Shown here: positions 1-10,263 of the stretch, piece by piece
Position numbering within the stretch: the stretch's first letter is position 1
Layout: every line of letters begins with the position of its first letter
From: a virus
Lineage: Duplodnaviria; Heunggongvirae; Uroviricota; Caudoviricetes
Length of the DNA stretch: 10,263 bases
Strand: one strand, 5' to 3'
IMG/VR virus record: IMGVR_UViG_2713897055_000015
Location: 1-10,263 of that record
Translations under genes and position numbers: made by a program
Notes under the pieces: model-generated
What the model was told of the DNA's origin: nothing
What the model saw: the letters and a program-made list of their open reading frames with translations, nothing else
The model's database searches: none

Positions 1-25
1 AGGCGAATTTCCGCCTTCGGTCATT

Positions 26-106
26 CCTTAATCATCTGCGTAATCATAATGATTATTCAGCCAGCGCAATTTTGCGCTTTGCTTTAAGTTCAACCAGTTA
101 CCGCCA
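26..106. repeat. Copy 1 of an ~80-bp imperfect direct repeat
   Basis: Read directly: 26-106 aligns with 149-238 (CCTTAATCATCTGCGTAA...CATTCAGCCAGCGCAATTTTG(C/A)GCTTTGCTTTAA...GTTACCGCC). Contains near-palindrome AATCATAATGATTA and a short hairpin AGCGC-AATTTT-GCGCT. Confidence 0.7.
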
Positions 107-148
107 GCTTCCCCCAATGGGGGATTGTGGAATAATCAACGGTTTAGG

Positions 149-238
149 CCTTAATCATCTGCGTAAACATAAGTAATCATAATGATCATTCAGCCAGCGC
201 AATTTTGAGCTTTGCTTTAATCTCAGTGAGTTACCGCC
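149..238. repeat. Copy 2 of the ~80-bp direct repeat, with a ~9-bp internal insertion; its end overlaps the stop codon of the 93-aa ORF
   Basis: Read directly; the hairpin present in copy 1 is disrupted here (GCGC to GAGC). Confidence 0.7.
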
Positions 239-512
239 GCAACCGTTCCGGCTTCTTCCAGTGGTACGTGATTTTCTCCTTCTCCCGATACATCTCCACG
301 CGGCGACGGTATGCCAGCAACTCAAGGACTCTGGTTCGTATGTTGCGCATATCCACGCCGTTAAGCTCAATACCATCACGGCGCATCACCTCAGCAACAA
401 CACGCACATAATTTTCAGCGGTCACGCTGTCCGGATGTGTGGCCTGTTCGTCATGCTGCTGGCTGATTCCGGTAACGCGGCGGATTAATCCCAGTAGTTC
501 GGCTTCTGTCAT
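231..512 (-). CDS. Hypothetical protein (93 aa), basic C-terminus, function unknown
   Basis: ORF from the six-frame track; G-rich Shine-Dalgarno-like GGGGG about 5 nt upstream of the ATG at 510-512; protein-like composition. No family recognised by eye. Confidence 0.5.
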   Translation of the reverse strand: MTEAELLGLIRRVTGISQQHDEQATHPDSVTAENYVRVVAEVMRRDGIELNGVDMRNIRTRVLELLAYRRRVEMYREKEKITYHWKKPERLRR

Positions 513-544
513 TGTGCCCCCATCGCTCTGATAGCCTGGTGTCG

Positions 545-612
545 TCGGGTCCTTCCTGGAATTATGGCCCGTTACGGGGCGGCGACCTCACGGTTTTTCG
601 CTATTTATGAGC
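545..612 (+). other. Lambda-type cos site copy 1 (cosQ-like flank, cosN, I2-like), plus-strand orientation
   Basis: 568-589 CCCGTTACGGGGCGGCGACCTC followed by TTTTTCGCTATTTATGA. From memory this is nearly identical to the lambda cosN region, with the 12-nt cohesive-end sequence GGGCGGCGACCT at 577-588. Confidence 0.75.
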
Positions 613-626
613 TTTTTTTAGAGGGA

Positions 627-777
627 GGTTGTTGTTTAATTGTTTGTCATATCCATTTGATAACTAAGTAAAAATAAAGAGCAATACAACAACCTGATAG
701 TGTTTTTTTGATGCTAAAAATAAAAAAATGCTAATTGAATCAAATAGTTTTAAAAAAATACGTGGTTGTTGTATTGC
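627..777. promoter_or_regulatory. AT-rich region with three GGTTGTTGT-type repeats in direct-inverted-direct arrangement (candidate cosB-like terminase-binding R sites)
   Basis: GGTTGTTGTTT at 627-637; GCAATACAACAACC at 681-694, which is the exact reverse complement of GGTTGTTGTATTGC at 764-777. Spacing after cosN resembles the lambda R3-R2-R1 layout but the repeat sequence differs from the lambda R sites as I recall them. Confidence 0.45.
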
Positions 778-806
778 GTATTTGATGGCGTAACAGAAAG
801 TGATTT

Positions 807-1247
807 TTAACTTTGCTGTTCTGTAACGACTGATTGTTCCATGCTGGCACGGCGAACGCTTACGGCATGACGCCACCCAGCCAGAAAGCCGGCCATTTTA
901 TTTCGCGCTTTGCTCACTTCTTCCGGTGAGTAGCCGTAAATCTGTAAACCTTCATCAAATCTATGTTCTGTTTCTTCACTGGAGTACTCGTCACGCTCAG
1001 ATGAAAGCAGCCTGGCAACCATAATTTTTTCCAGCGCACTGGTTTCTACGTGATATCCAATGGCCTCAAGATGGCTTTTACCTGAAGACCAAAGCAATGT
1101 ATGCCCGATGTGATAACCGCCGGACTTTCCGCGATCCGCATTAAGATACGGCATCCCTTGTTTGGTCCATGCGCGAATAGTGGTTCTGTTTACCTTGAAA
1201 TGTTCAGCTATTTCCTGCTGACTTACAAAACAAGCCTTATTAATCAT
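807..1247 (-). CDS. Nu1-like small-terminase-family protein: N-terminal winged-HTH cos-binding domain with a divergent C-terminal region (146 aa)
   Basis: N-terminus MINKACFVSQQEIAEHFKVNRTTIRAWTKQGMPYLNADRGKSGG resembles lambda gpNu1 N-terminus (VNKKQLADIFGASIRTIQNWQEQGMPVLRGGGKG, recalled from memory). SD GAGGT 8 nt upstream of the ATG at 1245-1247. A cos site lies about 90 bp upstream. Confidence 0.7.
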   Translation of the reverse strand: MINKACFVSQQEIAEHFKVNRTTIRAWTKQGMPYLNADRGKSGGYHIGHTLLWSSGKSHLEAIGYHVETSALEKIMVARLLSSERDEYSSEETEHRFDEGLQIYGYSPEEVSKARNKMAGFLAGWRHAVSVRRASMEQSVVTEQQS

Positions 1248-1304
1248 AATGTTACCTCAATTGACTGATTAAATGTTAATCAAGTGGTGGTGGTGTCACC
1301 TTCA

Positions 1305-1390
1305 CGGAAAAACGTCATAAATAGCGAAAACGCGCGAGGTCGCCGCCCCGTAACGGGTCCATATGCCGGAAAGGACCCGTAAAAAAAAGC
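1305..1390 (-). other. Lambda-type cos site copy 2 (cosQ-like flank, cosN, I2-like), minus-strand orientation, directly upstream of the Nu1-like gene
   Basis: Reverse complement of 1305-1390 reads ACGGGTCCTTTCCGG..CCCGTTACGGGGCGGCGACCTCGCGCGTTTTCGCTATTTATGACG. The 12-mer is at 1337-1348 on the complement. About 85% identical to copy 1 over ~70 bp, in inverted orientation. Confidence 0.8.
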
Positions 1391-1404
1391 CGGATTTCTC
1401 CGGC
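1381..1404 (-). terminator. Intrinsic terminator (hairpin GCCGGA-TTTC-TCCGGC followed by U8 on the minus strand) ending the capsid operon
   Basis: Read directly: A8 at 1381-1388 and hairpin at 1389-1404 on the plus strand, giving hairpin plus T-run on the minus strand, 7 bp past the stop of the 137-aa ORF. Confidence 0.75.
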
Positions 1405-1410
1405 CTTGTC

Positions 1411-1824
1411 TCAGATGGTTTTCAGTATGCGCTCGATGTCGCCATCATCGCCCGGGTTTCTGCCGTCGTATGCCATGCCAGCTGAAACGGCTTGCGGGCT
1501 GTGCATGTCCATAAAGTTTTCAAAGGCTGCGGTAAGCTCCGGCGCAACCTTCTGGCGTTCCTGCTCTATGGTCATGCTAAGGATGCTTTTAGCCGTACCA
1601 ACATCGATACAAGGCACGTTTGCCATTGCACGTAACAGCGGCTGATAGTCGTTATGCTCATGAAGCGCCATAATCGCATCAGCGCGCGGCTTGTCCTGCT
1701 CTTCCAGTTTGTTGAGTTGATATACGGCCTCGTAGGTTGATAAACCTCTGTCAGCCATTGCTCGCGCTTCGGCTTTAAATTTACTCGCCAGCGGTAGCGT
1801 CATGATGCTTTCATTCGTTGCCAT
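1411..1824 (-). CDS. Hypothetical protein (137 aa), last gene of the capsid operon; function unknown
   Basis: ORF with protein-like composition, 12 nt downstream of the decoration-protein gene. No confident homology by eye. Confidence 0.65.
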   Translation of the reverse strand: MATNESIMTLPLASKFKAEARAMADRGLSTYEAVYQLNKLEEQDKPRADAIMALHEHNDYQPLLRAMANVPCIDVGTAKSILSMTIEQERQKVAPELTAAFENFMDMHSPQAVSAGMAYDGRNPGDDGDIERILKTI

Positions 1825-1836
1825 CGTTCCCCCTGC

Positions 1837-2172
1837 TTATCGGGCCAGCGGCTGAACGGATACGCCAGAACCCGCAAAGGCGGCGCATTTTTTCGCATCG
1901 GTGTCGACGCTCTCGGGCCAGTTCACGGCGGCGATATTAAAGATCCCCGTCTTGTAGCACTGTGCTGATTTCTGCTTTGACGTGTCCACGGGGTACGAAG
2001 TCAGATAAACAGCCTTTCCGGACGCCTGACCATCCCACGGCTTAAACTCGCCATTGTCCGCCAGCATCAGCGGGGTAAATTCCTGAATGACGCCAGCATC
2101 AGCGGCAAAATGTACCAGCGTCGTGGATACCTGCTGACTGCCTGCAAATAACTCAATGTATGGAGTGTTCAT
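1837..2172 (-). CDS. Head decoration protein, lambda gpD-like (111 aa)
   Basis: Translation shares TPLML, WDG, YK(S/T)G(T/I)F, WPE and AFAG motifs in the same order as lambda gpD (recalled from memory); size matches (~110 aa). Confidence 0.8.
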   Translation of the reverse strand: MNTPYIELFAGSQQVSTTLVHFAADAGVIQEFTPLMLADNGEFKPWDGQASGKAVYLTSYPVDTSKQKSAQCYKTGIFNIAAVNWPESVDTDAKKCAAFAGSGVSVQPLAR

Positions 2173-2183
2173 AGAATCCCCCG

Positions 2184-3239
2184 TTAACCAATTTTGACGG
2201 TAACAAATTTGCGAATGTCTGCCGGCACCGGCTGCGGTGCGCTGTGCGTCTGCACGTACTCAATCGCCGGATCGCCGTCCTCAATCCAGTTTTTCGGGTA
2301 GTACATGTTTTGCGTTGCGCCCGTTCTTACCGCTTCCTGATCCATAATCGCACCATAAGCAACCAGCCCTTTATTGTTGGTGTTGCCCAAGACCAGCAAA
2401 TCAGGCTCAAGGAAATGTTTTTCGGTGCCGTCGCTGTCGGCGTATTTGCCGGAATAGACGATAAGGGCAATATCGCCCAGATAGCCTTTAAAGCTCACCA
2501 CTTCGCCTAGGTTTTTACAGGCCAGTTCTGCGGCGGATTCTGAACCACGGGAAAGATCGTACAGTTCGCGGAATTTTTTAAAGCTGCGTAACGTGCGCCA
2601 TACCTCAGCGCCCATAATCATGACGTTTGCGGGGCAATTGCCCTGATCCGCATAAAGCTCGATATCATAGATTGGATCGTGGGTTTCTTTGTCCTGCTCG
2701 GACCATTTACGGCCTTTGGCCTGCTCTATGATGTTGTTTTCCGGCATCTTCCAGTCGATTTCATAGCGTTCTATGCCTTCGCCCTCAATGATGTTTTTTC
2801 CGGTCGTTACCGCATTTACCGCCAGCCATTCAACACGCGCTTTAATAGCGTTTACCTGGCGGCGCATGTTGCCAGTAATCAGGCGCATACGGCGATAGGT
2901 TGGGTCGTTAAGCTGTGCCGGATCTTCTCCAGCCATGCGCATGATGGTTTTTGTTGGATCGATTTCGTGCTTTGGCTTCATGTAGCCAGGTTTAATCGTG
3001 CTGGTTTCGTACCCTTTATCGCGCTGTACCTGGCTACCAACCATAGGCGAGCAAAACGCTGACATAGTGACTTCTTCGGTGTCCAGGTTATCCAGCATGA
3101 TGTTTTGGGTGTTGAATGTCGCTACTTTCGGGAAAAACAGCGTGGTAAACAGCGGACTAAATTTAAATTCCGCAATATCCCCGCGATTCAGGTACGCAAA
3201 AAGCTGGTTAGTGTTAAGTGCCGTTGCTTTGCCTGCCAT
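2184..3239 (-). CDS. Major capsid protein, lambda gpE family (351 aa)
   Basis: Extended blocks match lambda gpE as recalled: EFKFSPLF..LFF, PGYMKPKHEI, GEDPAQLNDPTYRRMRLI, VSFKGYLGDIALIVYSGKY, YPKNWIEDGDPA. Confidence 0.92.
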   Translation of the reverse strand: MAGKATALNTNQLFAYLNRGDIAEFKFSPLFTTLFFPKVATFNTQNIMLDNLDTEEVTMSAFCSPMVGSQVQRDKGYETSTIKPGYMKPKHEIDPTKTIMRMAGEDPAQLNDPTYRRMRLITGNMRRQVNAIKARVEWLAVNAVTTGKNIIEGEGIERYEIDWKMPENNIIEQAKGRKWSEQDKETHDPIYDIELYADQGNCPANVMIMGAEVWRTLRSFKKFRELYDLSRGSESAAELACKNLGEVVSFKGYLGDIALIVYSGKYADSDGTEKHFLEPDLLVLGNTNNKGLVAYGAIMDQEAVRTGATQNMYYPKNWIEDGDPAIEYVQTHSAPQPVPADIRKFVTVKIG

Positions 3240-3445
3240 TATTCACCCCCATAATTTTTATGCATCCCAAGCGCCGCAAGTAAATAAGAGCGCACAAGTG
3301 AACCTATCGACGGCTCCGGCGTCATCAGCGGATCCAGTCCAGCCGCTACGCCAGCCTCATAGTTTTTTTTGTGGCGCTGCTTGAGCACCTCCACGATTTC
3401 GGGGCTTATGTACACCGAAACACCGCCTTTTTTCTCTTCTGCCAT
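3239..3445 (-). CDS. Hypothetical small protein (68 aa), first gene of the capsid operon, translationally coupled to the capsid gene (TAATG overlap)
   Basis: SD AGAGGA ~11 nt upstream of the ATG at 3443-3445; stop overlaps the capsid gene start by 1 nt. Confidence 0.6.
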   Translation of the reverse strand: MAEEKKGGVSVYISPEIVEVLKQRHKKNYEAGVAAGLDPLMTPEPSIGSLVRSYLLAALGMHKNYGGE

Positions 3446-3484
3446 AGTCAGAAATTCCTCTTTGACTTAAAAAAATCACAACTG

Positions 3485-3512
3485 GATGTTCATCCAGTTA
3501 TGATTATAATCA
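3485..3512. promoter_or_regulatory. Promoter/operator region upstream of the capsid operon: imperfect inverted repeat GGATG-TT-CATCC (3485-3496) and perfect 12-bp palindrome TGATTATAATCA (3501-3512) containing TATAAT on both strands
   Basis: Read directly; lies 40-70 bp upstream of the first capsid-operon ATG. Confidence 0.5.
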
Positions 3513-3608
3513 TGATTGCATTTTGCGCAATAAAATTGAGTTGTGTTGCAAATTATGAAATGATTTACAGCAACAGTAGTCACCATGCTGTTAACCTCGT
3601 AAGCAAAA

Positions 3609-3647
3609 GCCCGATAAGCTTCCTCCTGTACTTATCGGGCTTTTTTT
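3609..3647 (+). terminator. Hairpin (GCCCGATAAG...CTTATCGGGC) followed by T7 on the plus strand; intrinsic terminator for a plus-strand transcript or bidirectional element
   Basis: 10-bp stem, 12-nt loop, seven T at 3641-3647. No annotated plus-strand gene ends here. Confidence 0.5.
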
Positions 3648-3653
3648 GGGTAC

Positions 3654-3676
3654 AAAAAGCCGGATTTTCTCCGGCC
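3654..3676 (-). terminator. Intrinsic terminator of the SSB operon (hairpin GCCGGATTTTCTCCGGC, U5 on the minus strand); near-identical to the terminator at 1381-1404
   Basis: Read directly; lies 8 bp past the SSB stop codon. Confidence 0.7.
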
Positions 3677-3683
3677 TGTGCGT

Positions 3684-4094
3684 TCAGAACGGAATATCAT
3701 CACCGTAGGGGTCATCGTCTCCCGCTGGTGGCTGATTACCCTGTGCGCCTGTGGTTTTGCGTCTGTTCCCGCCAGGACGTGCCGCACGGGCACTGATTAC
3801 GCTGTCTGCAATAACCTGATAACCCTGCCGCGTTTCCCCGTTCTGTCCGGTCCACTGGCTTATCTGCATCACGCCAGATATGCTGGCAACGTCGCCTTTT
3901 TGATGTTTAGCCAGGAAGTCGGCCTGCTTACCAAATGCCATCACCGATAGCCATAACGTAGCCGTTCCGTCATCTGCCTGGCTGCACGGAAGGGGGACCG
4001 CCATACGCGCCAGCGTCATCGGTGTGCCCTTGCTGGTCTGTTTTACCTGCGGGTCGTCCACCAGCCGCCCGTAAGCGGCTATCTGTGCTGTCAT
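3684..4094 (-). CDS. ssb: Single-stranded DNA-binding protein (SSB family, 136 aa)
   Basis: OB-fold-like N-terminal region resembling E. coli SSB, Gly/Gln-rich linker, and the characteristic acidic C-terminal tail ending DDIPF. Confidence 0.88.
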   Translation of the reverse strand: MTAQIAAYGRLVDDPQVKQTSKGTPMTLARMAVPLPCSQADDGTATLWLSVMAFGKQADFLAKHQKGDVASISGVMQISQWTGQNGETRQGYQVIADSVISARAARPGGNRRKTTGAQGNQPPAGDDDPYGDDIPF

Positions 4095-4405
4095 GATTCC
4101 ACCTCTCCGGTTTTAACGTTGATGGTTGTTACCTGTTCCGCTTCGGCAATCTCCCGTTCTGTCAGCGTGGCAAAGTTTGCCGCCGCTGTGGTCATGAATG
4201 CGCTTATCAGGTCGGGATGTTCCTTCGCGTATCCTTCCCGCGTGTGGCGGTCTATCGTTCTGATTGCCACCTTTAAGGTATGCTCAGTCATGTCTAACGC
4301 TTTATATTTTGGCTCTGTTCTGTCTCTGCGAATTTTGGTCATTTGTCGCCCCTGGTTCATGTTTTCGGCTGGCATGTTTGTTAAGTGATTTTGATGTATG
4401 CGCAT
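4091..4405 (-). CDS. Hypothetical protein (104 aa) translationally coupled to ssb (ATGA overlap)
   Basis: SD GAGGGGGTGA upstream of the ATG at 4403-4405; stop overlaps the ssb start. Function not recognised. Confidence 0.6.
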   Translation of the reverse strand: MRIHQNHLTNMPAENMNQGRQMTKIRRDRTEPKYKALDMTEHTLKVAIRTIDRHTREGYAKEHPDLISAFMTTAAANFATLTEREIAEAEQVTTINVKTGEVES

Positions 4406-4452
4406 TTATTTTCACCCCCTCGTTTAAAAAGTTTTTAGTTGTGCCTCCCCCC

Positions 4453-4675
4453 CTCTACCCATCTACCCGAATGCTCATCATGTCAGTAATGGCGCGGCTT
4501 TCAGCGGGTAGATAGCTTTTTGGGCTCCTCTACCTGCCGTCTACCCTGCTACCTGAAACTGATAAAATCAGGTAGAAGAGGTAGAGAGCTTTTATTAGCC
4601 TTCTACCTAGCCCTCTACCCACTTATCATGTTGAATAATATGCGTTTATTTCATTCAGGTAGATGGGGTAGAGGG
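4453..4675. repeat. Iteron array (about 12 copies of a TCTACC-core octamer in both orientations) with AT-rich stretches; putative origin of replication
   Basis: CTCTACCC 4453-4460, ATCTACCC 4461-4468, GGGTAGATA 4506-4514, CTCTACCT 4528-4535, TCTACCCT 4540-4547, CAGGTAGAAG 4569-4578, GGTAGAGA 4580-4587, TTCTACCT 4601-4608, CTCTACCC 4613-4620, GGTAGAT 4658-4664, GGGTAGAGGG 4666-4675. Lies immediately 3' of, and overlapping, the primase gene end. Confidence 0.7.
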
Positions 4676-6438
4676 CTTTTACAAAAAATTATAAAAAACG
4701 CGTCGCAATCGTCTGTTGTAATTGCGTTGGTCTGCGTTACTCCCTTAACTTTTCGCGTAATATATTCATGCCCGTAAACTTTCGCCGCTGGCTTCATGGC
4801 CTTGCTGAACTCAGCCACGTTTAGCGGTTTGCTCCTGCCTGCGTATGCCATAAACGCCAGATAGACGCGGTAAAGGCTGTTCCTGGTCGTGTACTTCACT
4901 GAATCGCCACCGCCGCCCATCATCAGGCCGCGTGCTTCCTCCAGAAAATTCAGGAACTGGCAAAACTCAATAACCGGATCCGTCTGTTGCTTTATTGCCA
5001 GAGCTTCATCACCGTCACGCTGTTCCAGTAGTAAAGCCCGTGCCTTCTCAGGGTCGGTAAAGTTCGCCAGCAATCGGCGGATAATGACAGGGATTTCAGC
5101 CGCAATCTTTTCCGGTAGCTCCCTGTCTTTTTCGGCCTCACTGACGATATTGTCGAAACGGAAAATTACGCGACGACGTGACACACCTCCGGCCCGTTCG
5201 GTGAATATCATCGGGTTATTGTTGGTAGCCAGCACCACCGCCCTGATTACCGCCGTAAAACGCTTCTCATATTTCGGGTTAATTTCCACGGGGTCGCCGC
5301 CCGTGATTTTCTTGATGCCCGTTCCTTCGCCTGTATATTTCGGCTGGTCAGCCAGGACGATAAGACGACTCCCGACAACCTGCGCACGTCCACCAGCATC
5401 ATCAAGCGATGTCATTTCAGCGCTTACCGTGTTCTGTTTCCCTGCCAGAAGGCTGGCTATGTGTGTGAATGTACTTTTACCGCTCCCGCCGTCTCCGGTG
5501 GCCTCAATAAACATCTGCCAGTCGTACCGGTTCGCCATAATCATGTACAGCGCGGCACATATACGCATCATCTTGCGCGGGTCTTTTCCGGCTGCGTGCT
5601 CAAGCCATTTATGAAAGTTTGGCGCGTTGTCGCGGATATTCTCCCCTGGTGCTGGTGGCGTGTACTCAATGCCGTTGTGCGTGGTGATCCAGTTCTCCGG
5701 CGTGTGCGGGGAAAATTCCCCCGTTTTCAGGTCAAGCGCACCATTGGCGAACGGCAGCAAATCGCCGGACGGCTCGCCCATTGGTTCGGCAATAACTTTT
5801 AACGCTTCCACGGCGTTATTGATTACGCGCTTGCTGAAAGTGGCCCTGTGCTCTGAATAGATCGCCACCATTTCGCGGCTAAGTTCCATTGTGCTGACCG
5901 GACACCATACCCCGCCGCGCCATACGTGAACGATTTCACTTTCCGGATGCACACAAACGCCATCAAATCGACCAGCAAGCATCTGTGCGCGCTCACTGTC
6001 TGCCATTTGTGCCAGTTGCGTATTTTTCTGCTCCGGCATGGTAAGCCCTGCGGCAATATTTTCACGCTCAGCATTCAGATAGCGCCGCCAGTTTTCACAC
6101 TTCTGGACGTGCATTCCTTCGTGGTAAAAATTTGCGTCCTGAATATCTGCCGCCGCCAGCTTCTGACCAATCTTTTTGGTCTCCACTAAATCCAGTTCTC
6201 CGGCCTGGTACAGCCTTACGCGCTTTTTCCCATCCGGAACAATTTTCAGCGCATCAAGTTCGGCAAGCTGCTTTGGCCCAAGCCACACAGGCGGCACATT
6301 ATCGCCGGATGCGGGGCCATCCTGCTCCTGCCATTGTTTCGCGTGCGACCAGGCATCACTACCCGCAAAGATAATTACCTCTGTGTCTTTGTGTTTTATT
6401 CCGCGTGGCTGTTTTTTTACGTTCGGTGCCAGTTTCAT
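4651..6438 (-). CDS. Primase-helicase of the P4 alpha / D5 family (595 aa) with a P-loop NTPase domain
   Basis: Walker A motif GDGGSGKST within a region typical of phage/plasmid primase P4-family C-terminal domains; position (upstream of iterons, downstream of immunity-type genes) matches satellite replication genes. The final ~17 codons are encoded by iteron sequence. Confidence 0.88.
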   Translation of the reverse strand: MKLAPNVKKQPRGIKHKDTEVIIFAGSDAWSHAKQWQEQDGPASGDNVPPVWLGPKQLAELDALKIVPDGKKRVRLYQAGELDLVETKKIGQKLAAADIQDANFYHEGMHVQKCENWRRYLNAERENIAAGLTMPEQKNTQLAQMADSERAQMLAGRFDGVCVHPESEIVHVWRGGVWCPVSTMELSREMVAIYSEHRATFSKRVINNAVEALKVIAEPMGEPSGDLLPFANGALDLKTGEFSPHTPENWITTHNGIEYTPPAPGENIRDNAPNFHKWLEHAAGKDPRKMMRICAALYMIMANRYDWQMFIEATGDGGSGKSTFTHIASLLAGKQNTVSAEMTSLDDAGGRAQVVGSRLIVLADQPKYTGEGTGIKKITGGDPVEINPKYEKRFTAVIRAVVLATNNNPMIFTERAGGVSRRRVIFRFDNIVSEAEKDRELPEKIAAEIPVIIRRLLANFTDPEKARALLLEQRDGDEALAIKQQTDPVIEFCQFLNFLEEARGLMMGGGGDSVKYTTRNSLYRVYLAFMAYAGRSKPLNVAEFSKAMKPAAKVYGHEYITRKVKGVTQTNAITTDDCDAFFIIFCKSPLPHLPE

Positions 6439-6734
6439 TTTTTACCCCTGAATACGTTAAGCATCTTTTTTATTTCCTGAATATTGGCGCGTGCTTTCTC
6501 CCTGCTGGTTGGTTTACTGCGGGGCGCTGCCTGTACCAGAGAAAAATCACGATCGAACTGATAAACAGGCATAACGCAGTCATATTCGTAGCCTTCACGG
6601 CGGTAAGTTACGCGCCGTTCCTCCACGCCTTTAATCGTTACCGTGCCGCCGTACTGGTCGCGGTAAATATCCCCGCGCATGAATTTAGTGCGAGTTTTGC
6701 CACTGGCAGTTAAGCCAGAATATTTAAGTTTCAT
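6435..6734 (-). CDS. Small protein (99 aa), possibly DUF4222-like, translationally coupled to the primase gene (ATGA overlap)
   Basis: Motif RRVTYRREGYEYDCV recalls DUF4222-type proteins from P4-like elements (from memory, unverified); SD GGAG upstream. Confidence 0.55.
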   Translation of the reverse strand: MKLKYSGLTASGKTRTKFMRGDIYRDQYGGTVTIKGVEERRVTYRREGYEYDCVMPVYQFDRDFSLVQAAPRSKPTSREKARANIQEIKKMLNVFRGKK

Positions 6735-6739
6735 TATTT

Positions 6740-6967
6740 TTATTCTCCGGTGTGGGGCGCGTTATTATTTTCGTGAATTGCCATCGCCTTATCCAGTTCA
6801 TCAATTACAGGCGATAGTAATGTCTGAACGGCGGCAAGCATTAATGACGAAGATTCTTCTCCAGCTTCCGTTGCTTCAATTAATTTAATTAACAACGCAT
6901 TCATTTCACGCGCTTTAATTAATGCGTTTTCAGAATGAATAAGAACATCATAGGGTATTTTATTCAT
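6740..6967 (-). CDS. Hypothetical small protein (75 aa), overlapping the upstream Icd-like gene by 8 nt
   Basis: ORF with protein-like composition in operon context. Function unknown. Confidence 0.55.
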   Translation of the reverse strand: MNKIPYDVLIHSENALIKAREMNALLIKLIEATEAGEESSSLMLAAVQTLLSPVIDELDKAMAIHENNNAPHTGE

Positions 6968-7130
6968 GACTCACCCCCTGACGAATACGGGCGACAAAAA
7001 TCAGATGTGCGTGCGGCAGCTGGGCGCGTGCTTCGCGTTCAGTGGCAGCGGTAACGGTGTAAATATCAATGCTGCTGTGGTGGCACTGCATAAAGCGCCA
7101 GACAAAGTAAGGGCGTGCGGATACAGCCAT
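6960..7130 (-). CDS. Icd-like small protein, copy 2 (56 aa; MAVSARPYFVWRF...ARIRQGVSHE)
   Basis: Start chosen at the internal ATG (7128-7130), preceded by AGGAG at 8-nt spacing. The C-terminal 50 aa are paralogous to copy 1. The long N-terminal extension in the ORF track (168 aa) is not supported. Confidence 0.6.
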   Translation of the reverse strand: MAVSARPYFVWRFMQCHHSSIDIYTVTAATEREARAQLPHAHLIFVARIRQGVSHE

Positions 7131-7194
7131 GTGAAAGGCTCCTACAGTAATTTTAAGGAGTCTCGCTACTACGCTGCTAAACGGGGTGGCGAGA

Positions 7195-7256
7195 CGTAAC
7201 AGGGTTAGCAGACTGGCACTGTAGGAACCAGCGAGCGCAAAGGCTCCCCCGTTACG
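7195..7256 (-). ncRNA. Candidate CI/C4-like immunity RNA carrying a seqB-like element
   Basis: On the minus strand CGUAACGGG (from plus 7248-7256) can pair with CCCUGUUACG (from plus 7195-7204), closing a ~60-nt element that contains GGUUCCUACAGUGCCAGUCUGCUAACC. That inner sequence is complementary to an upstream stretch (7321-7360) and to the SD region of Icd-like copy 2 (7138-7150). Confidence 0.4.
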
Positions 7257-7416
7257 CCCCGCCATAATGCGGGTATGGGTAGGCTTACGGACACAAAAAA
7301 ACCGCATATCGGAATATAAGCGGCTGTCCGCTACAGTATTCAGGCTGCTAAACCCGGTCGCCATGTGGGCGACGGGGGAAGCATACAGCCCCGTTATAAT
7401 TTTTTGCAAGCGGTTT

Positions 7417-7614
7417 TTACGCATGATGTGACCCCTGACGAATACGGGCGGCGAATACAGCAACACAACCGGACGGGCAACGGCTACGCGCTTCGCGTTC
7501 CGTCCAGGCGGTTACGTGGATGATTTGATGGTCTGACGCGCCAAAGGCAATAAAACGCCACACAAAGGCGGTTTGTGTGTGCGCTAGTCGTGGGGTATGC
7601 TGTCTTACAGCCAT
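7417..7614 (-). CDS. Icd-like small protein, copy 1 (65 aa; MAVRQHTPRLAHTQTAFVWRF...ARIRQGSHHA)
   Basis: Start chosen at the ATG (7612-7614) preceded by AGGAG at 8-nt spacing, same start context as copy 2 (AGGAG-N8-ATGGCTGTA). The ORF-track extension to 7737 is unsupported. Confidence 0.55.
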   Translation of the reverse strand: MAVRQHTPRLAHTQTAFVWRFIAFGASDHQIIHVTAWTEREARSRCPSGCVAVFAARIRQGSHHA

Positions 7615-7689
7615 AATCGTTACTCCTGTTAACGGTTTGGTTAGACGCCCTGCATGTGTGCCACCACTGCGGGGCGTTGTCGTTTGGTG

Positions 7690-7799
7690 CATCGCACCAC
7701 TCATTTTTAACCTATCAGTAAGTGAATCGCACTTCAAGCCTTTCTCTGAAATTTTTTTTTGTGTATACTGAATCGCACCAACTTAGAGAGGATTCAGTA
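7690..7799. promoter_or_regulatory. Divergent promoter/operator region with repeated (TG)AATCGCAC motifs and a T9 tract
   Basis: ATCGCAC at 7692-7698, GTGAATCGCAC at 7722-7732, TGAATCGCACC at 7770-7780; TATACT -10-like hexamer at 7764-7769 preceded by TG, upstream of the RHH gene; the minus-strand immunity-type operon starts in the opposite direction. Confidence 0.5.
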
Positions 7800-7979
7800 A
7801 TGGCAACAGGTTCAACAAATAATAAGTCGCAACAGTTAAATGCCAGATTCCCGCATGATGTTGTTGCAGACTTAGAAAAAAATTTAGATGAAGGTGAAAG
7901 CAAGGCGCAATTTATAGTTACTGCCGTTAAAGGCGAGATCAAACGCCGCCAGCGCCGCAAGGCCAAAGAATCAGAATAA
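7800..7979 (+). CDS. Small ribbon-helix-helix-like DNA-binding protein (59 aa)
   Basis: Start at the ATG (7800-7802) with SD GAGAGGA. Sequence pattern QLNARFPHDVVADLEKNLDE..FIVTAVKGEI fits a beta-strand/helix/helix (CopG/Arc-like) layout; basic C-terminus. The upstream extension in the ORF track depends on a GTG and crosses the promoter. Confidence 0.6.
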   Translation: MATGSTNNKSQQLNARFPHDVVADLEKNLDEGESKAQFIVTAVKGEIKRRQRRKAKESE

Positions 7980-8036
7980 TCACTATCAGCGCCGTGGTGT
8001 GAGGTACTACGGCGCATTGCTTTACAGGGCAGTATC

Positions 8037-8264
8037 ATGACCAACAACACACTATTACCAATACAAGACACGCAAACCCAAGATGATGAAATCATCCGGC
8101 AAAGGCAGTCAGAAGCCTGCGCCAGAGTTGAGGAAGAACTAACCAGAACAAAAATACCACCACCAGCGCCGCGCTTAATGCCACCAGAAAAATTTGCCCT
8201 TGAAGATTTTGTCGAGAAATACCCACGGCGGTTAAAAGCCACTAAAAACCGACCGCCTGGCTGA
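8037..8264 (+). CDS. Hypothetical small protein (75 aa), acidic N-terminal half and Pro-rich segment
   Basis: ORF downstream of the RHH gene after a hairpin (GCGCCGT..ACGGCGC, 7991-8017); weak SD. Function unknown. Confidence 0.45.
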   Translation: MTNNTLLPIQDTQTQDDEIIRQRQSEACARVEEELTRTKIPPPAPRLMPPEKFALEDFVEKYPRRLKATKNRPPG

Positions 8265-8420
8265 TAGCCTTGTCCACCAGCTACGGCGGTGCTAAGATCG
8301 AAAGCTGCATAAGTCATGAAATAAACTCCTTAGCGGTGCATACGCGCCGCTTCTTTCTTCACGAACAACCGCGAACAACTACAAACAAAAACACGGACGG
8401 AATTTAAAGAATGAATATTC

Positions 8421-8615
8421 TTAATTGACGCGTTCGCGGTTTTTGACCCACGCCACAACCTCAGACTTAACCCAGCCAACCGAACGACCGCCAAGACTGA
8501 TACGGGAGGGAAAGCGGCCTTGTTTTTCCATCTCGTAACGAGTTGTGCGGCAAACGCCTGTTAGCTCTCTGCATTCTTTTTCGCGGATTACACGATCTTC
8601 ATTTATTTCGCGCAT
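8421..8615 (-). CDS. alpA: AlpA-family phage transcriptional regulator / excisionase-like protein (64 aa)
   Basis: Small HTH protein with the typical AlpA-family pattern (..LTGVCRTTRYEMEKQGRFP..I.LG.RSVGW...EV..W...) located next to a P4-type integrase. Confidence 0.85.
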   Translation of the reverse strand: MREINEDRVIREKECRELTGVCRTTRYEMEKQGRFPSRISLGGRSVGWVKSEVVAWVKNRERVN

Positions 8616-9024
8616 AAAAAGCCCTACATAAAATTACGTATAGAAATTTTTGTTTCGCTGTGGATATACGGAAAGAGATTACTTCTTAGCTTTTCTTACC
8701 TCTTAAATTGATGGCGTAACCTTGCCAAAAGCTATGCTCGACAAGGTTCGCAAGGGTTCGTTGTTGTTCATAAAATCGTTGCACACCAGGAAAGACAATT
8801 CAACATTAAAATTCCCTCTACAGTGAGGAATAATAAAAAAAACAAATTAAAACAGTCACATAAAAGCATGCACTTTGAAATAAAGGAAAATATTAAAACT
8901 CAAGTAGACAATCGCTGTTTTCAAATTTTTTCAATACTTGACACATATAAATCGTCGATATTTGCCGATATTCGACGATTTATTTTAGAGGGCCATTTTT
9001 CGCAAGAAAAACAGCCGTAATTTG

Positions 9025-10263
9025 TCAAGAATTTTGAGAGTAAATTCGCGGGGTCATAACAACGATTTTTTCATCATTGTTCTGGAGAAGCTCGAGACGC
9101 TCAACCCATAGATTAAGAGCGTCACGTTTTGCATCGAGATAACGGGAGTGATTATAGACTCGTTGCACTCCTGGCAACTGGTGCGCGGTTAGCTGCTCCA
9201 CTACATGAGGATCCACGCCTAAATCGTTCAGCATCGTTGTAAACGTGTGCCGGATGTCGTGCAACGTCCAGGGGGCTTGATTAATACGTCTGTGTGCCGT
9301 TCTTCCGTACTCTGATACGGATGATTGCCCTTTCAGTTCTCCGAGCAATAATCCCGTGTGCCTGTTCTGCTCCACCAGCTTCGTTACGAACGGCAAGATC
9401 GCTTCCGGTATTGGCCTGAATATTGCTACCTTCGTTTTGCTATGTTCTTTCGGCACGGTCCAGAGCATTTCTTTAAAATCCCATTCCTGGACCTCAGAGC
9501 GTCTTAGCTCAGTGGTACGACATCCGAAGACAATCAGGAGGCGAATCAGGGCGCTGTAGTACGGTGGGTAAATTTTTTCATCCAGGGCGCGGAGTAATTC
9601 CCCAAGCTCCTTGTTTGTTAGTACGCGCTCGCTTATTTCTGCTTTTTTCCCAACATCACCTACAACCATATCATCTAGAACGTTGGTAATTGCGTAGCGT
9701 CGTTTGCGGCAGTACTTAAGCGCCTGCTTGCATACCTGTAACAAAAATCCTGCTGATACCGGATTACGCTTAGCAAGCTGATCAAAACAGGTCAGCCAGT
9801 GGCGTAGCTCGCATTTTTCCAGCGGCATAGCACCAATATGGCTGATTATGTGTGTATTGATCCGGCTTTTCAGAGATTCGTAATCTGTGCGCTTTTCCTT
9901 CGCGTACGATTCAAGCCAGTAAGTGAGCGCTTCCTTAACCGTAACAGGTGATAACGCTTCCTGTACGGTGTGATTAAGCTCATGGCGTGGATTTTTACCC
10001 TCAGCAAGCCAGGCGCGACACTGCGACGCTTTTTCCCTGGCTGCTTTCAGGCTCAAATCTGGATAATTTCCCAGCCTCAGACGTTCAGGGGCTACCTTCC
10101 TGCCTGTTCCGGCCCTGTAAGTGAAATACCAGGTTAACAGGCCATTGGTTGAATGCCTTACGCTAAGGTTGCCACCATCATTAAAAAAGGTGTTTTTTGT
10201 GGTTGGTGATCCGCTTAATTTTCGTAAAAGAGTGTCGCTAAGTCTATGAATTGCCCTGCTCAT
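9025..10263 (-). CDS. int: Tyrosine site-specific integrase, P4-type (412 aa; start codon at the window edge, N-terminus possibly a few residues longer)
   Basis: N-terminal arm-binding-type region (LSD..L..L.....K....DGG.L.V.....G...W.F.Y) and C-terminal catalytic signature HDIRHT ... VYNHSRY, typical of P4/CP4-57-type integrases. Confidence 0.95.
   Translation of the reverse strand: MSRAIHRLSDTLLRKLSGSPTTKNTFFNDGGNLSVRHSTNGLLTWYFTYRAGTGRKVAPERLRLGNYPDLSLKAAREKASQCRAWLAEGKNPRHELNHTVQEALSPVTVKEALTYWLESYAKEKRTDYESLKSRINTHIISHIGAMPLEKCELRHWLTCFDQLAKRNPVSAGFLLQVCKQALKYCRKRRYAITNVLDDMVVGDVGKKAEISERVLTNKELGELLRALDEKIYPPYYSALIRLLIVFGCRTTELRRSEVQEWDFKEMLWTVPKEHSKTKVAIFRPIPEAILPFVTKLVEQNRHTGLLLGELKGQSSVSEYGRTAHRRINQAPWTLHDIRHTFTTMLNDLGVDPHVVEQLTAHQLPGVQRVYNHSRYLDAKRDALNLWVERLELLQNNDEKIVVMTPRIYSQNS

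Follow-up and report, generated by a model that had tools for sequence, protein, structure and literature searches.

Which regulator keeps a Gram-negative phage-inducible chromosomal island (PICI) quiet is the question raised by the locus described here, the study that defined these elements having called their global repressor unclear, with the activator AlpA alone being known (PMC6092414). The locus is located in a 10,263-nucleotide stretch of IMG/VR virus record IMGVR_UViG_2713897055_000015 (positions 1 to 10,263, referred to as the window), which is a PICI of the EcCICFT073 type. As noted in a sequence-only reading of the window, a gene encoding a 59-amino-acid (aa) protein, predicted to be of the ribbon-helix-helix (RHH) type, is transcribed divergently from an operon headed by an Icd-like gene. 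Comparison of this locus with its relatives suggests that the 59-aa protein probably represses the icd/C4/primase operon to confer immunity, regulates its own synthesis and passes between elements together with its sites as a cassette; it is accordingly a strong maintenance-repressor candidate for Gram-negative PICIs. A literature search, to which subscription journals were largely closed, returned no paper describing the module or naming a Gram-negative PICI repressor.

The heptamer ATCGCAC, the core of the three repeats reported previously, is present at 7691, 7726 and 7772 of the window, with one further copy in the entire sequence. Although the shared intergenic region had been estimated at ∼110 bp, the start codons of the divergent genes, the icd-like ATG at 7614 and the RHH ATG at 7800, are 185 bp apart. 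The repeats are parts of 11-bp candidate operators, O1, O2 and O3 (Table 1), and three copies with at most one mismatch within 185 bp were matched in only 4 of 3000 dinucleotide-preserving shuffles. In alignment A5, comprising ten loci from six genera whose protein carries the strand KSQQLNARFP, the three 11-mers are constant while the intervening DNA is variable. Spacing is conserved as well, O2 being found −77 or −78 from the RHH ATG in every locus and unchanged in sequence in ten loci of six genera, O3 at −32 in all loci giving the three-site set and O1 at −112 or about −100 in all loci. Scanning the window with up to two mismatches revealed no extra copies besides two matches, located within the primase and int genes, that are expected by chance, and no copies were detected outside RHH loci in either the window or IMG/VR viral contigs. 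Thus, there is no sign that the RHH protein targets helper-phage DNA.

The candidate operators coincide with both promoters. The leftward early promoter, a predicted analogue of P4 PLE, was assigned by reading the sequence and from positions conserved in alignment A5, namely TTGA of the −35, TA...T of the −10 and the plus-strand CTTCAA beside O2. Given this placement of TTGAAG, a 17-nt spacer and TAGGTT, O2 fills the spacer of the leftward promoter. The third site overlaps the last two bases of the RHH −10 hexamer, in agreement with the sequence-only reading, and its first base is C, not G, wherever O3 overlaps TATACT, which suggests a weaker site that may be filled last. Counterparts of this −10 in other specificity classes are TATTCT, CATAAT and TATAAT. 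In a second class, represented by locus L027, the leftward promoter consists of TTGAAG, 18 nt holding O2, TATACT and, immediately after, O1, an arrangement mirroring that of the rightward RHH promoter. All three predicted sites occupy positions typical of repression.

A genome scan identified 22 loci, including representatives in Morganella, Citrobacter, Proteus, Pectobacterium, Dickeya, Xenorhabdus, Cedecea and Yersinia. The architecture is fixed across Enterobacterales while the sequence of the sites shifts jointly with the N-terminal strand of the RHH protein, giving ∼12 classes. When residues 11–17 are changed, all three sites change together, with R16 invariant and positions 12 and 14 variable. 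The strand KSQQLNARFP, present in the window and others, is accompanied by site GTGAATCGCAC, KSQKLQ(A/T)RAP by (G/C)TGGAWTCCA(C/G) (L027, L016), KSQKIQARAP by CTGGATTCCAG or GTGGAGTACAC (L020, L021), KSRQKTARVP by GTGACTCCCAC (L017), KSQFMTARVP by GTGTGTATCAC (L019), KSKALKARVP by GTGGGGTCCAC (L022), KSQALKARVP by GTGTGGCCCAC (EcCICFT073), KSKQISIRIP by CTGAATCACA (L001), KSAKKNIRFP by TGTGCGCACA (L030), KSQSVTARIA by GTGTAAGACAC (L033) and KSQMTTVRIP by GTGAAATACAC (L031).

Exchange of the sites is evident between elements that encode nearly the same AlpA. The window and L001, the locus of E. coli SCU-106, share 100% identical AlpA, their RHH proteins are 50% identical and their sites differ. 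AlpA is 97–100% identical among L027, L033 and L031, which carry three distinct site sets, and 95% identical between L030 and EcCICFT073, which also differ in their sites. L001 and L032, with RHH proteins 98% identical, share sites. AlpA was therefore ruled out as the reader of the repeats, the sites dissociating from near-identical AlpA and tracking RHH. Alignment of the window with L001 further indicates near-identity on both flanks and divergence confined to the interval from O1 through RHH residue ∼53. This interval is an exchangeable specificity cassette and in this respect resembles the immunity regions of lambdoid phages. Searching IMG/VR for TGAATCGCAC-N20-40-TGAATCGCAC recovered 40 satellite-sized contigs, with an intact KSQQLNARFP gene beside the sites in 36, a frameshifted gene in three and a locus that is cut off in the remaining one. 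The protein-based switch proposed from the sequence alone is thus consistent with repeats on both promoters, with covariation of the sites with the RHH strand and not with AlpA, and with the IMG/VR site pair being found beside its cognate gene.

The ratio of nonsynonymous to synonymous change (pN/pS), calculated from pooled pairwise substitution counts, is 0.15 in the RHH frame among close relatives (pS 0.70) and 0.30 over all 18 sequences, the lowest value of all frames, indicating that strong purifying selection acts on RHH and that the gene is real. The protein belongs to the curated NCBIfam family NF041551 (YlcI/YnfO N-terminal domain), residues 9–50 matching profile positions 1–42 of 42 with 63.3 bits against a cutoff of 30 (E = 1.5e-17). 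It also matches phrog_949, RefSeq names its homologues as YlcI/YnfO family and relatives of 59–61 aa form >130 clusters across Enterobacterales. Profile searches, suggested in the sequence-only reading as a check for membership in a well-known unrelated family, thus placed this protein in the uncharacterised YlcI/YnfO family and the 75-aa protein encoded downstream of it in none. A tblastn search of 50,697 phage genomes, P4 included, gave zero matches to the RHH protein at E ≤ 1e-3. The gene contains a run of seven A residues at 7876–7882, at which three IMG/VR loci with the same operators (L046, L063, L075) are frameshifted; this could reflect sequencing error, decay or on/off variation.

An RHH fold is likely for the 59-aa protein, as judged from the structure model and sequence motifs. 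The AlphaFold2 (AF2) monomer consists of an extended N-terminus (residues 1–18) followed by helices at 19–30 and 35–58. The N-terminal strand of an RHH protein makes a sheet only as a dimer. In the turn between the helices, G32-E33-S34, the glycine is nearly invariant and the glutamate fully so, with S, T or N occurring at position 34; a Gly-x-Ser/Thr/Asn turn opening helix B is a hallmark of the MetJ/Arc superfamily. Comparison by hhalign with P22 Arc aligned NKSQQLNARFPHDVV with SKMPQFNLRWPREVL (E = 7.8e-4) and placed Q12, N14 and R16 of the window protein opposite Q9, N11 and R13 of Arc, the residues which contact bases in the Arc operator. An Arc-like PHROG was matched at E = 0.064, and sub-threshold matches to Pfam families of RHH fold were obtained, PSK_trans_fac in 8 of 37 family members (best E = 0.0011) and CB_ParB_C in 7 of 37 (best E = 0.013). 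The RHH label given in the sequence-only reading is thus favoured by the predicted topology, the turn and the Arc alignment but not by Foldseek, PDB or Pfam thresholds, and the protein is a demonstrated member of no characterised repressor family.

A long antisense open reading frame (ORF), which did not feature in the sequence-only reading, probably alters the working of the switch. In the window this 200-codon, eta-like ORF spans both small genes together with O2 and O3 and its stop codon lies inside the early-promoter spacer. The wobble-sharing minus frame is stop-free across the whole RHH gene in 21 of the 22 loci, usually across the operators too, with lengths of 99–508 codons. In EcCICFT073 (L036 8752–10050, +) the frame extends over 433 codons, starting just past alpA and ending in frame with the Icd-like protein, in an E. 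coli locus (L025 2067–3935, −) it extends over 623 codons and covers four small plus-strand ORFs, and in most other loci it continues without a stop across the site of the icd-like gene. Yersinia similis (L022) has an intact RHH gene opposite a closed antisense frame. Compared with expectation from synonymous resampling, open antisense frames are in excess, being observed for 19 of 20 RHH genes (7.9 expected) and 11 of 11 small ORFs (3.95 expected), counts which derive from related and thus not independent sequences, although their synonymous sites are near saturation. The 204 non-coding nt within the antisense ORF of the window are open in 1.9% of shuffles. Openness of the antisense frame therefore appears to be kept by selection. 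The middle of the ORF is rich in Ser, Cys and Arg and resembles antisense junk, and Pfam detected no domain in the long antisense ORFs of EcCICFT073, L024, L002 and L017; thus, the amino-acid sequence itself does not look selected.

These observations can be arranged into a switch in which we infer DNA binding by the RHH protein, and repression rather than activation, from the anatomy of the locus and from precedent. RHH dimers would most likely bind the three 11-bp operators, of the form GTG-N5-CAC. During quiescence the RHH promoter would be on and RHH dimers on O2 and O1 would silence the early promoter, such that the icd-like gene, C4 RNA and primase would be off and the integrated satellite would be quiet and immune to incoming relatives. 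Occupation of O3, over the −10 and start of the RHH gene itself, would result in negative autoregulation. In E. coli elements the C4 RNA would act as a second, further-downstream block. Swapping of the operators and the recognition half as one cassette would create many orthogonal immunity types. With respect to induction, a helper phage activates alpA, and AlpA activates an ORF3 reporter in EcCICFT073 (Fillol-Salom et al., PMC6092414). Once alpA is switched on, leftward transcripts from the alpA promoter, shielded by translation of the long ORF, would read antisense through the RHH operon and on past the operators to reach icd, C4 and the primase, in the manner of P4 PLL/eta transcripts. We infer that the repressed promoter is bypassed in this manner and that leftward read-through, meeting rightward RHH expression head-on, opposes it.

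A more far-reaching version of this switch is put forward tentatively, as possible rather than probable. According to it, a YlcI/YnfO-type RHH protein would be the missing maintenance/immunity repressor, existing in at least a dozen swapped orthogonal types and embedded antisense in an AlpA-driven ORF so as to form a two-strand bistable switch. With RHH expressed, the early promoter would be off and rightward transcription would oppose read-through; with AlpA on, translated leftward read-through would silence RHH and skip the operators. Selection would then maintain translation of the late ORF (ORF3/eta-like) and not its protein product.

Several results weigh against the proposed repressor. 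Confidence in the AF2 monomer is low (pLDDT, the predicted local distance difference test, is 68), hhalign to Arc gave only 25% probability, no Pfam RHH family was matched above threshold by either the window protein or 37 family members, and Foldseek and a PDB profile search gave nothing for the 59-aa protein. The leftward promoter was not called by a stringent consensus scan and the RHH promoter is without a recognisable −35, with a T-rich tract upstream. The covarying DNA also encodes the antisense ORF, so that covariation alone can not tell whether the sites are read by the product of one strand or of the other. The eta analogy is imperfect for the window, where the antisense ORF ends at 7715 in a frame different from that of icd. 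Finally, overexpression of AlpA alone induces EcCICFT073 (PMC6092414), indicating that sensing of the helper does not occur at RHH and that induction may not require RHH.

Other explanations of the locus are less satisfactory. The sequence-only reading had offered, as an alternative to the switch, a two-gene module of regulator plus effector, possibly antitoxin-like, and a type II toxin-antitoxin-like pair, with RHH as antitoxin and autorepressor and either the 75-aa or the Icd/Kil-like protein as toxin, would agree with the weak Pfam matches to the antitoxin family PSK_trans_fac, with palindrome-like sites over RHH's own promoter and with the annotation of Icd-like proteins as cell-division inhibitors. 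We consider such a pair very improbable and rejected it since the partner is not conserved: the 75-aa gene is restricted to E. coli and is absent beside RHH in Citrobacter, Xenorhabdus, Morganella and Pectobacterium, where RHH stands alone. Furthermore, Pfam, NCBIfam, PHROGs and PADLOC gave no toxin or defence family for the 75-aa protein, the best match being at chance level (E = 0.042), and its model is a single long helix plus tail with no enzymatic fold. Nothing resembling a toxin-neutralising C-terminal extension is seen in RHH, only a basic tail past helix B, and two of the three sites are on the divergent promoter, not its own. Transcriptional control of icd/kil, for its part, is already contained in the repressor explanation.

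It is also improbable that the plus-strand ORFs are shadows of the long leftward ORF and that the repeats are read by AlpA, a Bro/eta-like protein or a helper-phage protein. Each small plus-strand ORF is in the wobble-matched register of one long minus frame, which is where shadows arise, antisense pN/pS is below 1 (0.24 across RHH, 0.60–0.64 across the 75-aa ORF) and in some genome annotations the long ORF is listed in place of the small ORFs (L024). However, pN/pS is lower in the plus frame of both genes, and RHH has a fixed length of 59–61 aa, its own Shine-Dalgarno (SD) sequence and −10 and a fixed stop, whereas the antisense frame varies from 99 to 508 codons, is Ser/Cys/Arg-rich in translation and matches no family. 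RHH, in contrast, falls in a curated NCBIfam family, carries an Arc-like motif and remains intact in Y. similis where the antisense frame is closed. The repeats do not track AlpA. Of the two genes, the 75-aa ORF is more readily explained as a shadow than RHH. It is likewise improbable that the protein binds the repeats as an activator, as a ParG/omega-like centromere-binding protein or as an excision-directionality protein. RHH proteins do include activators and partition proteins, weak matches to CB_ParB_C were obtained, an RHH promoter without a −35 might need help, and the 11-mers stand singly, with spacings of 35 and 46 bp, instead of forming adjacent repeats. On the other hand, all three overlap core promoter elements or starts, which are repression positions, ORF and Pfam analysis of the window revealed no ParA-like partner, no sites are found near att, int or the replication region beyond the two chance-level primase and int matches, and an excisionase-like function is already supplied by alpA.

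With repression by the RHH protein as the preferred explanation, the unit would combine the action of an Arc/Mnt-type repressor with an RNA immunity and read-through region of the P4/P1 type. In the secondary immunity region immI of P22, Arc and Mnt are likewise small RHH proteins on back-to-back divergent promoters, Arc being first in its operon, autoregulated and followed by the effector ant, while Mnt is divergent from the operon that it represses. The sequence relationship to Arc is not significant (hhalign 25%), an Arc tetramer occupies one 21-bp operator in contrast to three separate 11-bp sites here, the controlled operon consists of icd, C4 RNA and replication genes instead of an antirepressor, and the gene here is antisense inside another ORF. 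The Arc-then-effector layout of arc-ant also resembles the order of RHH and the 75-aa gene, although only as a possible analogy.

Resemblance to P4 includes the openness of the long leftward frame and the gene order, alpA/vis, a long ORF starting upstream of the early promoter, kil/icd-like, C4/CI-clan RNA and primase. PMC10111431 describes kil as nested in eta, which starts upstream of the constitutive PLE promoter, and states, citing Forti et al. 1999, that when eta is translated the late PLL transcripts are able to avoid the termination specific to immunity. When P4 itself was checked, a 217-codon open eta frame ending in Kil/Icd-like sequence was observed, the eta region contained no RHH gene and no plausible plus-strand ORF, and the interval between vis and the eta/kil ORF was only ∼180 bp. 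It is chiefly at the early promoter that P4 differs, PLE being described as constitutive and subject to RNA-mediated termination only, whereas here two conserved candidate operators overlap the predicted early promoter. In addition, the eta-like ORF here contains an operon of two genes on its opposite strand. The long ORF of the window is out of frame with the first icd-like gene, which is thus not nested in it as kil is in eta; nesting is observed in EcCICFT073. A closer analogue of P4 eta/kil in the window is a 168-codon ORF (6960–7466, −) which covers the a1b1 targets and C4 and ends in a second Icd-like domain, so that the window holds two tandem kil-like units.

The immI region of P1 and P7 (C4 RNA, icd, ant) is similar in having C4 RNA and a1b1 targets followed by an icd-like gene, and differs in that C4 is preceded in the window by an additional icd-like gene, with replication genes in the place of ant. 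We know of no divergent protein repressor at the P1 immI promoter. Stl/Rpr, the master repressors of Gram-positive PICIs (SaPIs), are comparable as divergent regulators heading a replication operon near int, with many allelic specificities. Stl/Rpr, however, are larger helix-turn-helix proteins inactivated by helper-phage proteins, whereas induction here occurs via AlpA (PMC6092414); no antirepressor is evident in the present system and RHH is probably bypassed rather than inactivated. The E. coli K-12 proteins YlcI and YnfO (DLP12 and Qin prophages; DUF3950) belong to the same NCBIfam N-terminal family, and YlcI (L034 6252–6446, −) shows the same strand-helix-turn-helix pattern, RNIRFP, a helix and GSGNFSAWV. 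The K-12 genes are located beside cos/nohD in lambdoid prophages, not in a divergent satellite control region. By this similarity, the y-ome genes ylcI and ynfO may encode RHH DNA-binding proteins.

Table 1. Positions of the regulatory elements, genes and RNAs of the window discussed in the text.
Feature	Position	Strand	Remarks
Candidate operator O1, GTGCATCGCAC	7687-7697	+	∼+6 to +16 of predicted leftward early transcript
Candidate operator O2, GTGAATCGCAC	7722-7732	+	consensus copy; first 11 nt after leftward −35
Candidate operator O3, CTGAATCGCAC	7768-7778	+	covers last 2 bp of RHH −10 and predicted start
Predicted leftward early promoter (P4 PLE analogue)	7709-7737	-	−35 TTGAAG 7737-7732, 17-nt spacer, −10 TAGGTT 7714-7709
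RHH promoter −10, TATACT	7764-7769	+	GTATACTG constant in alignment A5
59-aa YlcI/YnfO-family protein, predicted Arc-like RHH repressor	7800-7979	+	GAGG 9 nt before ATG
Exchangeable specificity cassette	∼7687-7958	.	operators and RHH residues 1 to ∼53; from window/L001 alignment
200-codon antisense ORF, eta-like	7715-8317	-	downstream of alpA; SD AAGGAG 8 nt before ATG
Leftward-operon leader	7617-7677	-	hairpin 7645-7677, constant UCUAACCA 7638-7645, small hairpin 7618-7634
First Icd-like (kil-like) gene	7417-7614	-	ATG at 7614; heads early-promoter operon; NF033153, E = 8.3e-17
a1b1 targets of C4	7337-7386	-	RNA immunity layer downstream of early promoter
C4 antisense RNA	7182-7269	-	Rfam RF01695, 71.5 bits
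D5-type primase	4651-6438	-	
DUF4222 gene, SSB, lambda-E-type major capsid gene, decoration gene	within window	-	
Hairpin between small genes	7989-8015	+	12-bp stem, terminator-like, weak T tract
75-aa small protein	8037-8264	+	long helix, Pro-rich linker, conserved FALEDFVEKYPRRLKATKNRPPG tail
Terminator-like hairpin	8332-8351	+	closes rightward operon, convergent with alpA
alpA, activator	8421-8615	-	PF05930, E = 4.7e-16
int	9025-10263	-	

Identification of the element is based on its gene content. ORFs and Pfam matches give int, alpA, primase/DUF4222 and SSB followed by capsid and decoration genes, all co-oriented, and gene order is identical in sequence H1 and in the prototype EcCICFT073 (NC_004431.1, 1,377,930–1,388,654). 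The H1 homologue of the first Icd-like gene carries the annotation Icd-like. An element 95% identical to the window is located between cspD and clpS in E. coli SCU-106, and E. coli genomes contain up to 6 matching places. The suggestion that the module had been inserted between alpA and the immunity region did not hold, as the RHH/operator unit is present in prototype EcCICFT073 and is thus a core part of the element.

The earlier assignment of an Icd/CI-like immunity operon proved essentially right, the RNA being Rfam C4, which is of the same Rfam clan as P4 CI; RF03163 also matches, with 45.5 bits. A second Icd-like gene is located on the minus strand beyond C4. In contrast, no match to C4, a1b1 or isrK was detected in RHH loci of eight other genera, even at E ≤ 0.1, ruling out C4 RNA as an obligatory partner of RHH. 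Layering of the protein switch on RNA immunity therefore applies to the window but is not general, and, because the module occurs without C4 in other genera, RHH is suggested to be the more general layer and C4 an addition. Every genus, C4-less loci included, shares the conserved leader of the leftward operon, which has no Rfam match. Its larger hairpin shows compensatory changes and the small hairpin displays an SD sequence in its loop. A search for a pairing partner of UCUAACCA gave only a 5-nt match in C4 and TGGTTAG at 8139–8145 (−), both at chance level, and was dropped. The Rfam int-alpA RNA motif is present in L002 (7057–7125), L005 (1847–1913) and L017 (7113–7181) and was undetected in the window at E ≤ 1.

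Downstream of RHH, the hairpin predicted previously was confirmed as conserved, with compensatory changes at 4 of 10 pairs, and probably functions as an attenuator. Hairpins of this type also precede the 57-aa ORF of EcCICFT073, a shorter version of the 75-aa gene, and three of four paralogous small ORFs in L025. The latter four (2758–3747, +; 67, 62, 69 and 82 aa) are in tandem and end in a FALEDF-like motif and basic tail, the same three being preceded by the hairpin plus ATTGCTTTACAGG, and a different 67-aa gene replaces RHH there. The 75-aa protein had been described as acidic and Pro-rich. Pro accounts for 10 of its 75 residues, but with a pI of 7.9 it is not acidic overall, an acidic N-terminal half being combined with a basic C-terminal tail. 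Homologues, all from E. coli, form 52 clusters, every one annotated hypothetical, with a variable N-terminal half and the conserved tail (K/R)FALEDF(V/L)xKYPRRLKATKNRPPG. Structure prediction, which had been proposed for both small proteins, gave the extended N-terminus and two helices of RHH described above and, for the 75-aa protein (pLDDT 76), a long helix (residues 9–39), Pro-rich linker, short helix (54–61) and basic tail. At default thresholds Pfam assigned no family to either protein, and PADLOC reported nothing. With pN/pS of 0.48–0.52 in its own frame and 0.60–0.64 in the antisense frame, the 75-aa ORF is probably a real gene, by a small margin.

Two further observations concern the surroundings of the module. 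In Pectobacterium and Dickeya (L005, L006, L012) the RHH/operator/icd-like module is near dusB-fis, directly adjoining it in L006 and L012 and separated from it by an int gene in L005. In these three loci the module is followed by variable cargo, including, from ORFs alone, a protein-kinase-like gene with a possible phosphatase partner, and the DNA downstream of RHH behaves as a cargo hotspot. Some E. coli elements also encode, near the first module, a second, unrelated small RHH-like protein (L031 940–1119, +; L027 3492–3668, +; e.g. ...PPFQFRLDPDLREKMEK...WIKRIIRKELQQRGIEPKG) with its own TGTAAT/ATTACA repeats upstream.

Since the module is carried by the prototype EcCICFT073, the open question of the Gram-negative PICI repressor can be tested in an established model satellite, directly and with existing strains and reporters. 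If the RHH protein is the repressor, this would explain both the silence of these satellites and the co-residence of several of them, and would give the YlcI/YnfO family of the y-ome a function. It would also provide ∼12 small, natural and orthogonal repressor-operator pairs, and a clear case of a functional gene located antisense within an ORF that appears to stay open for translation-coupled read-through.

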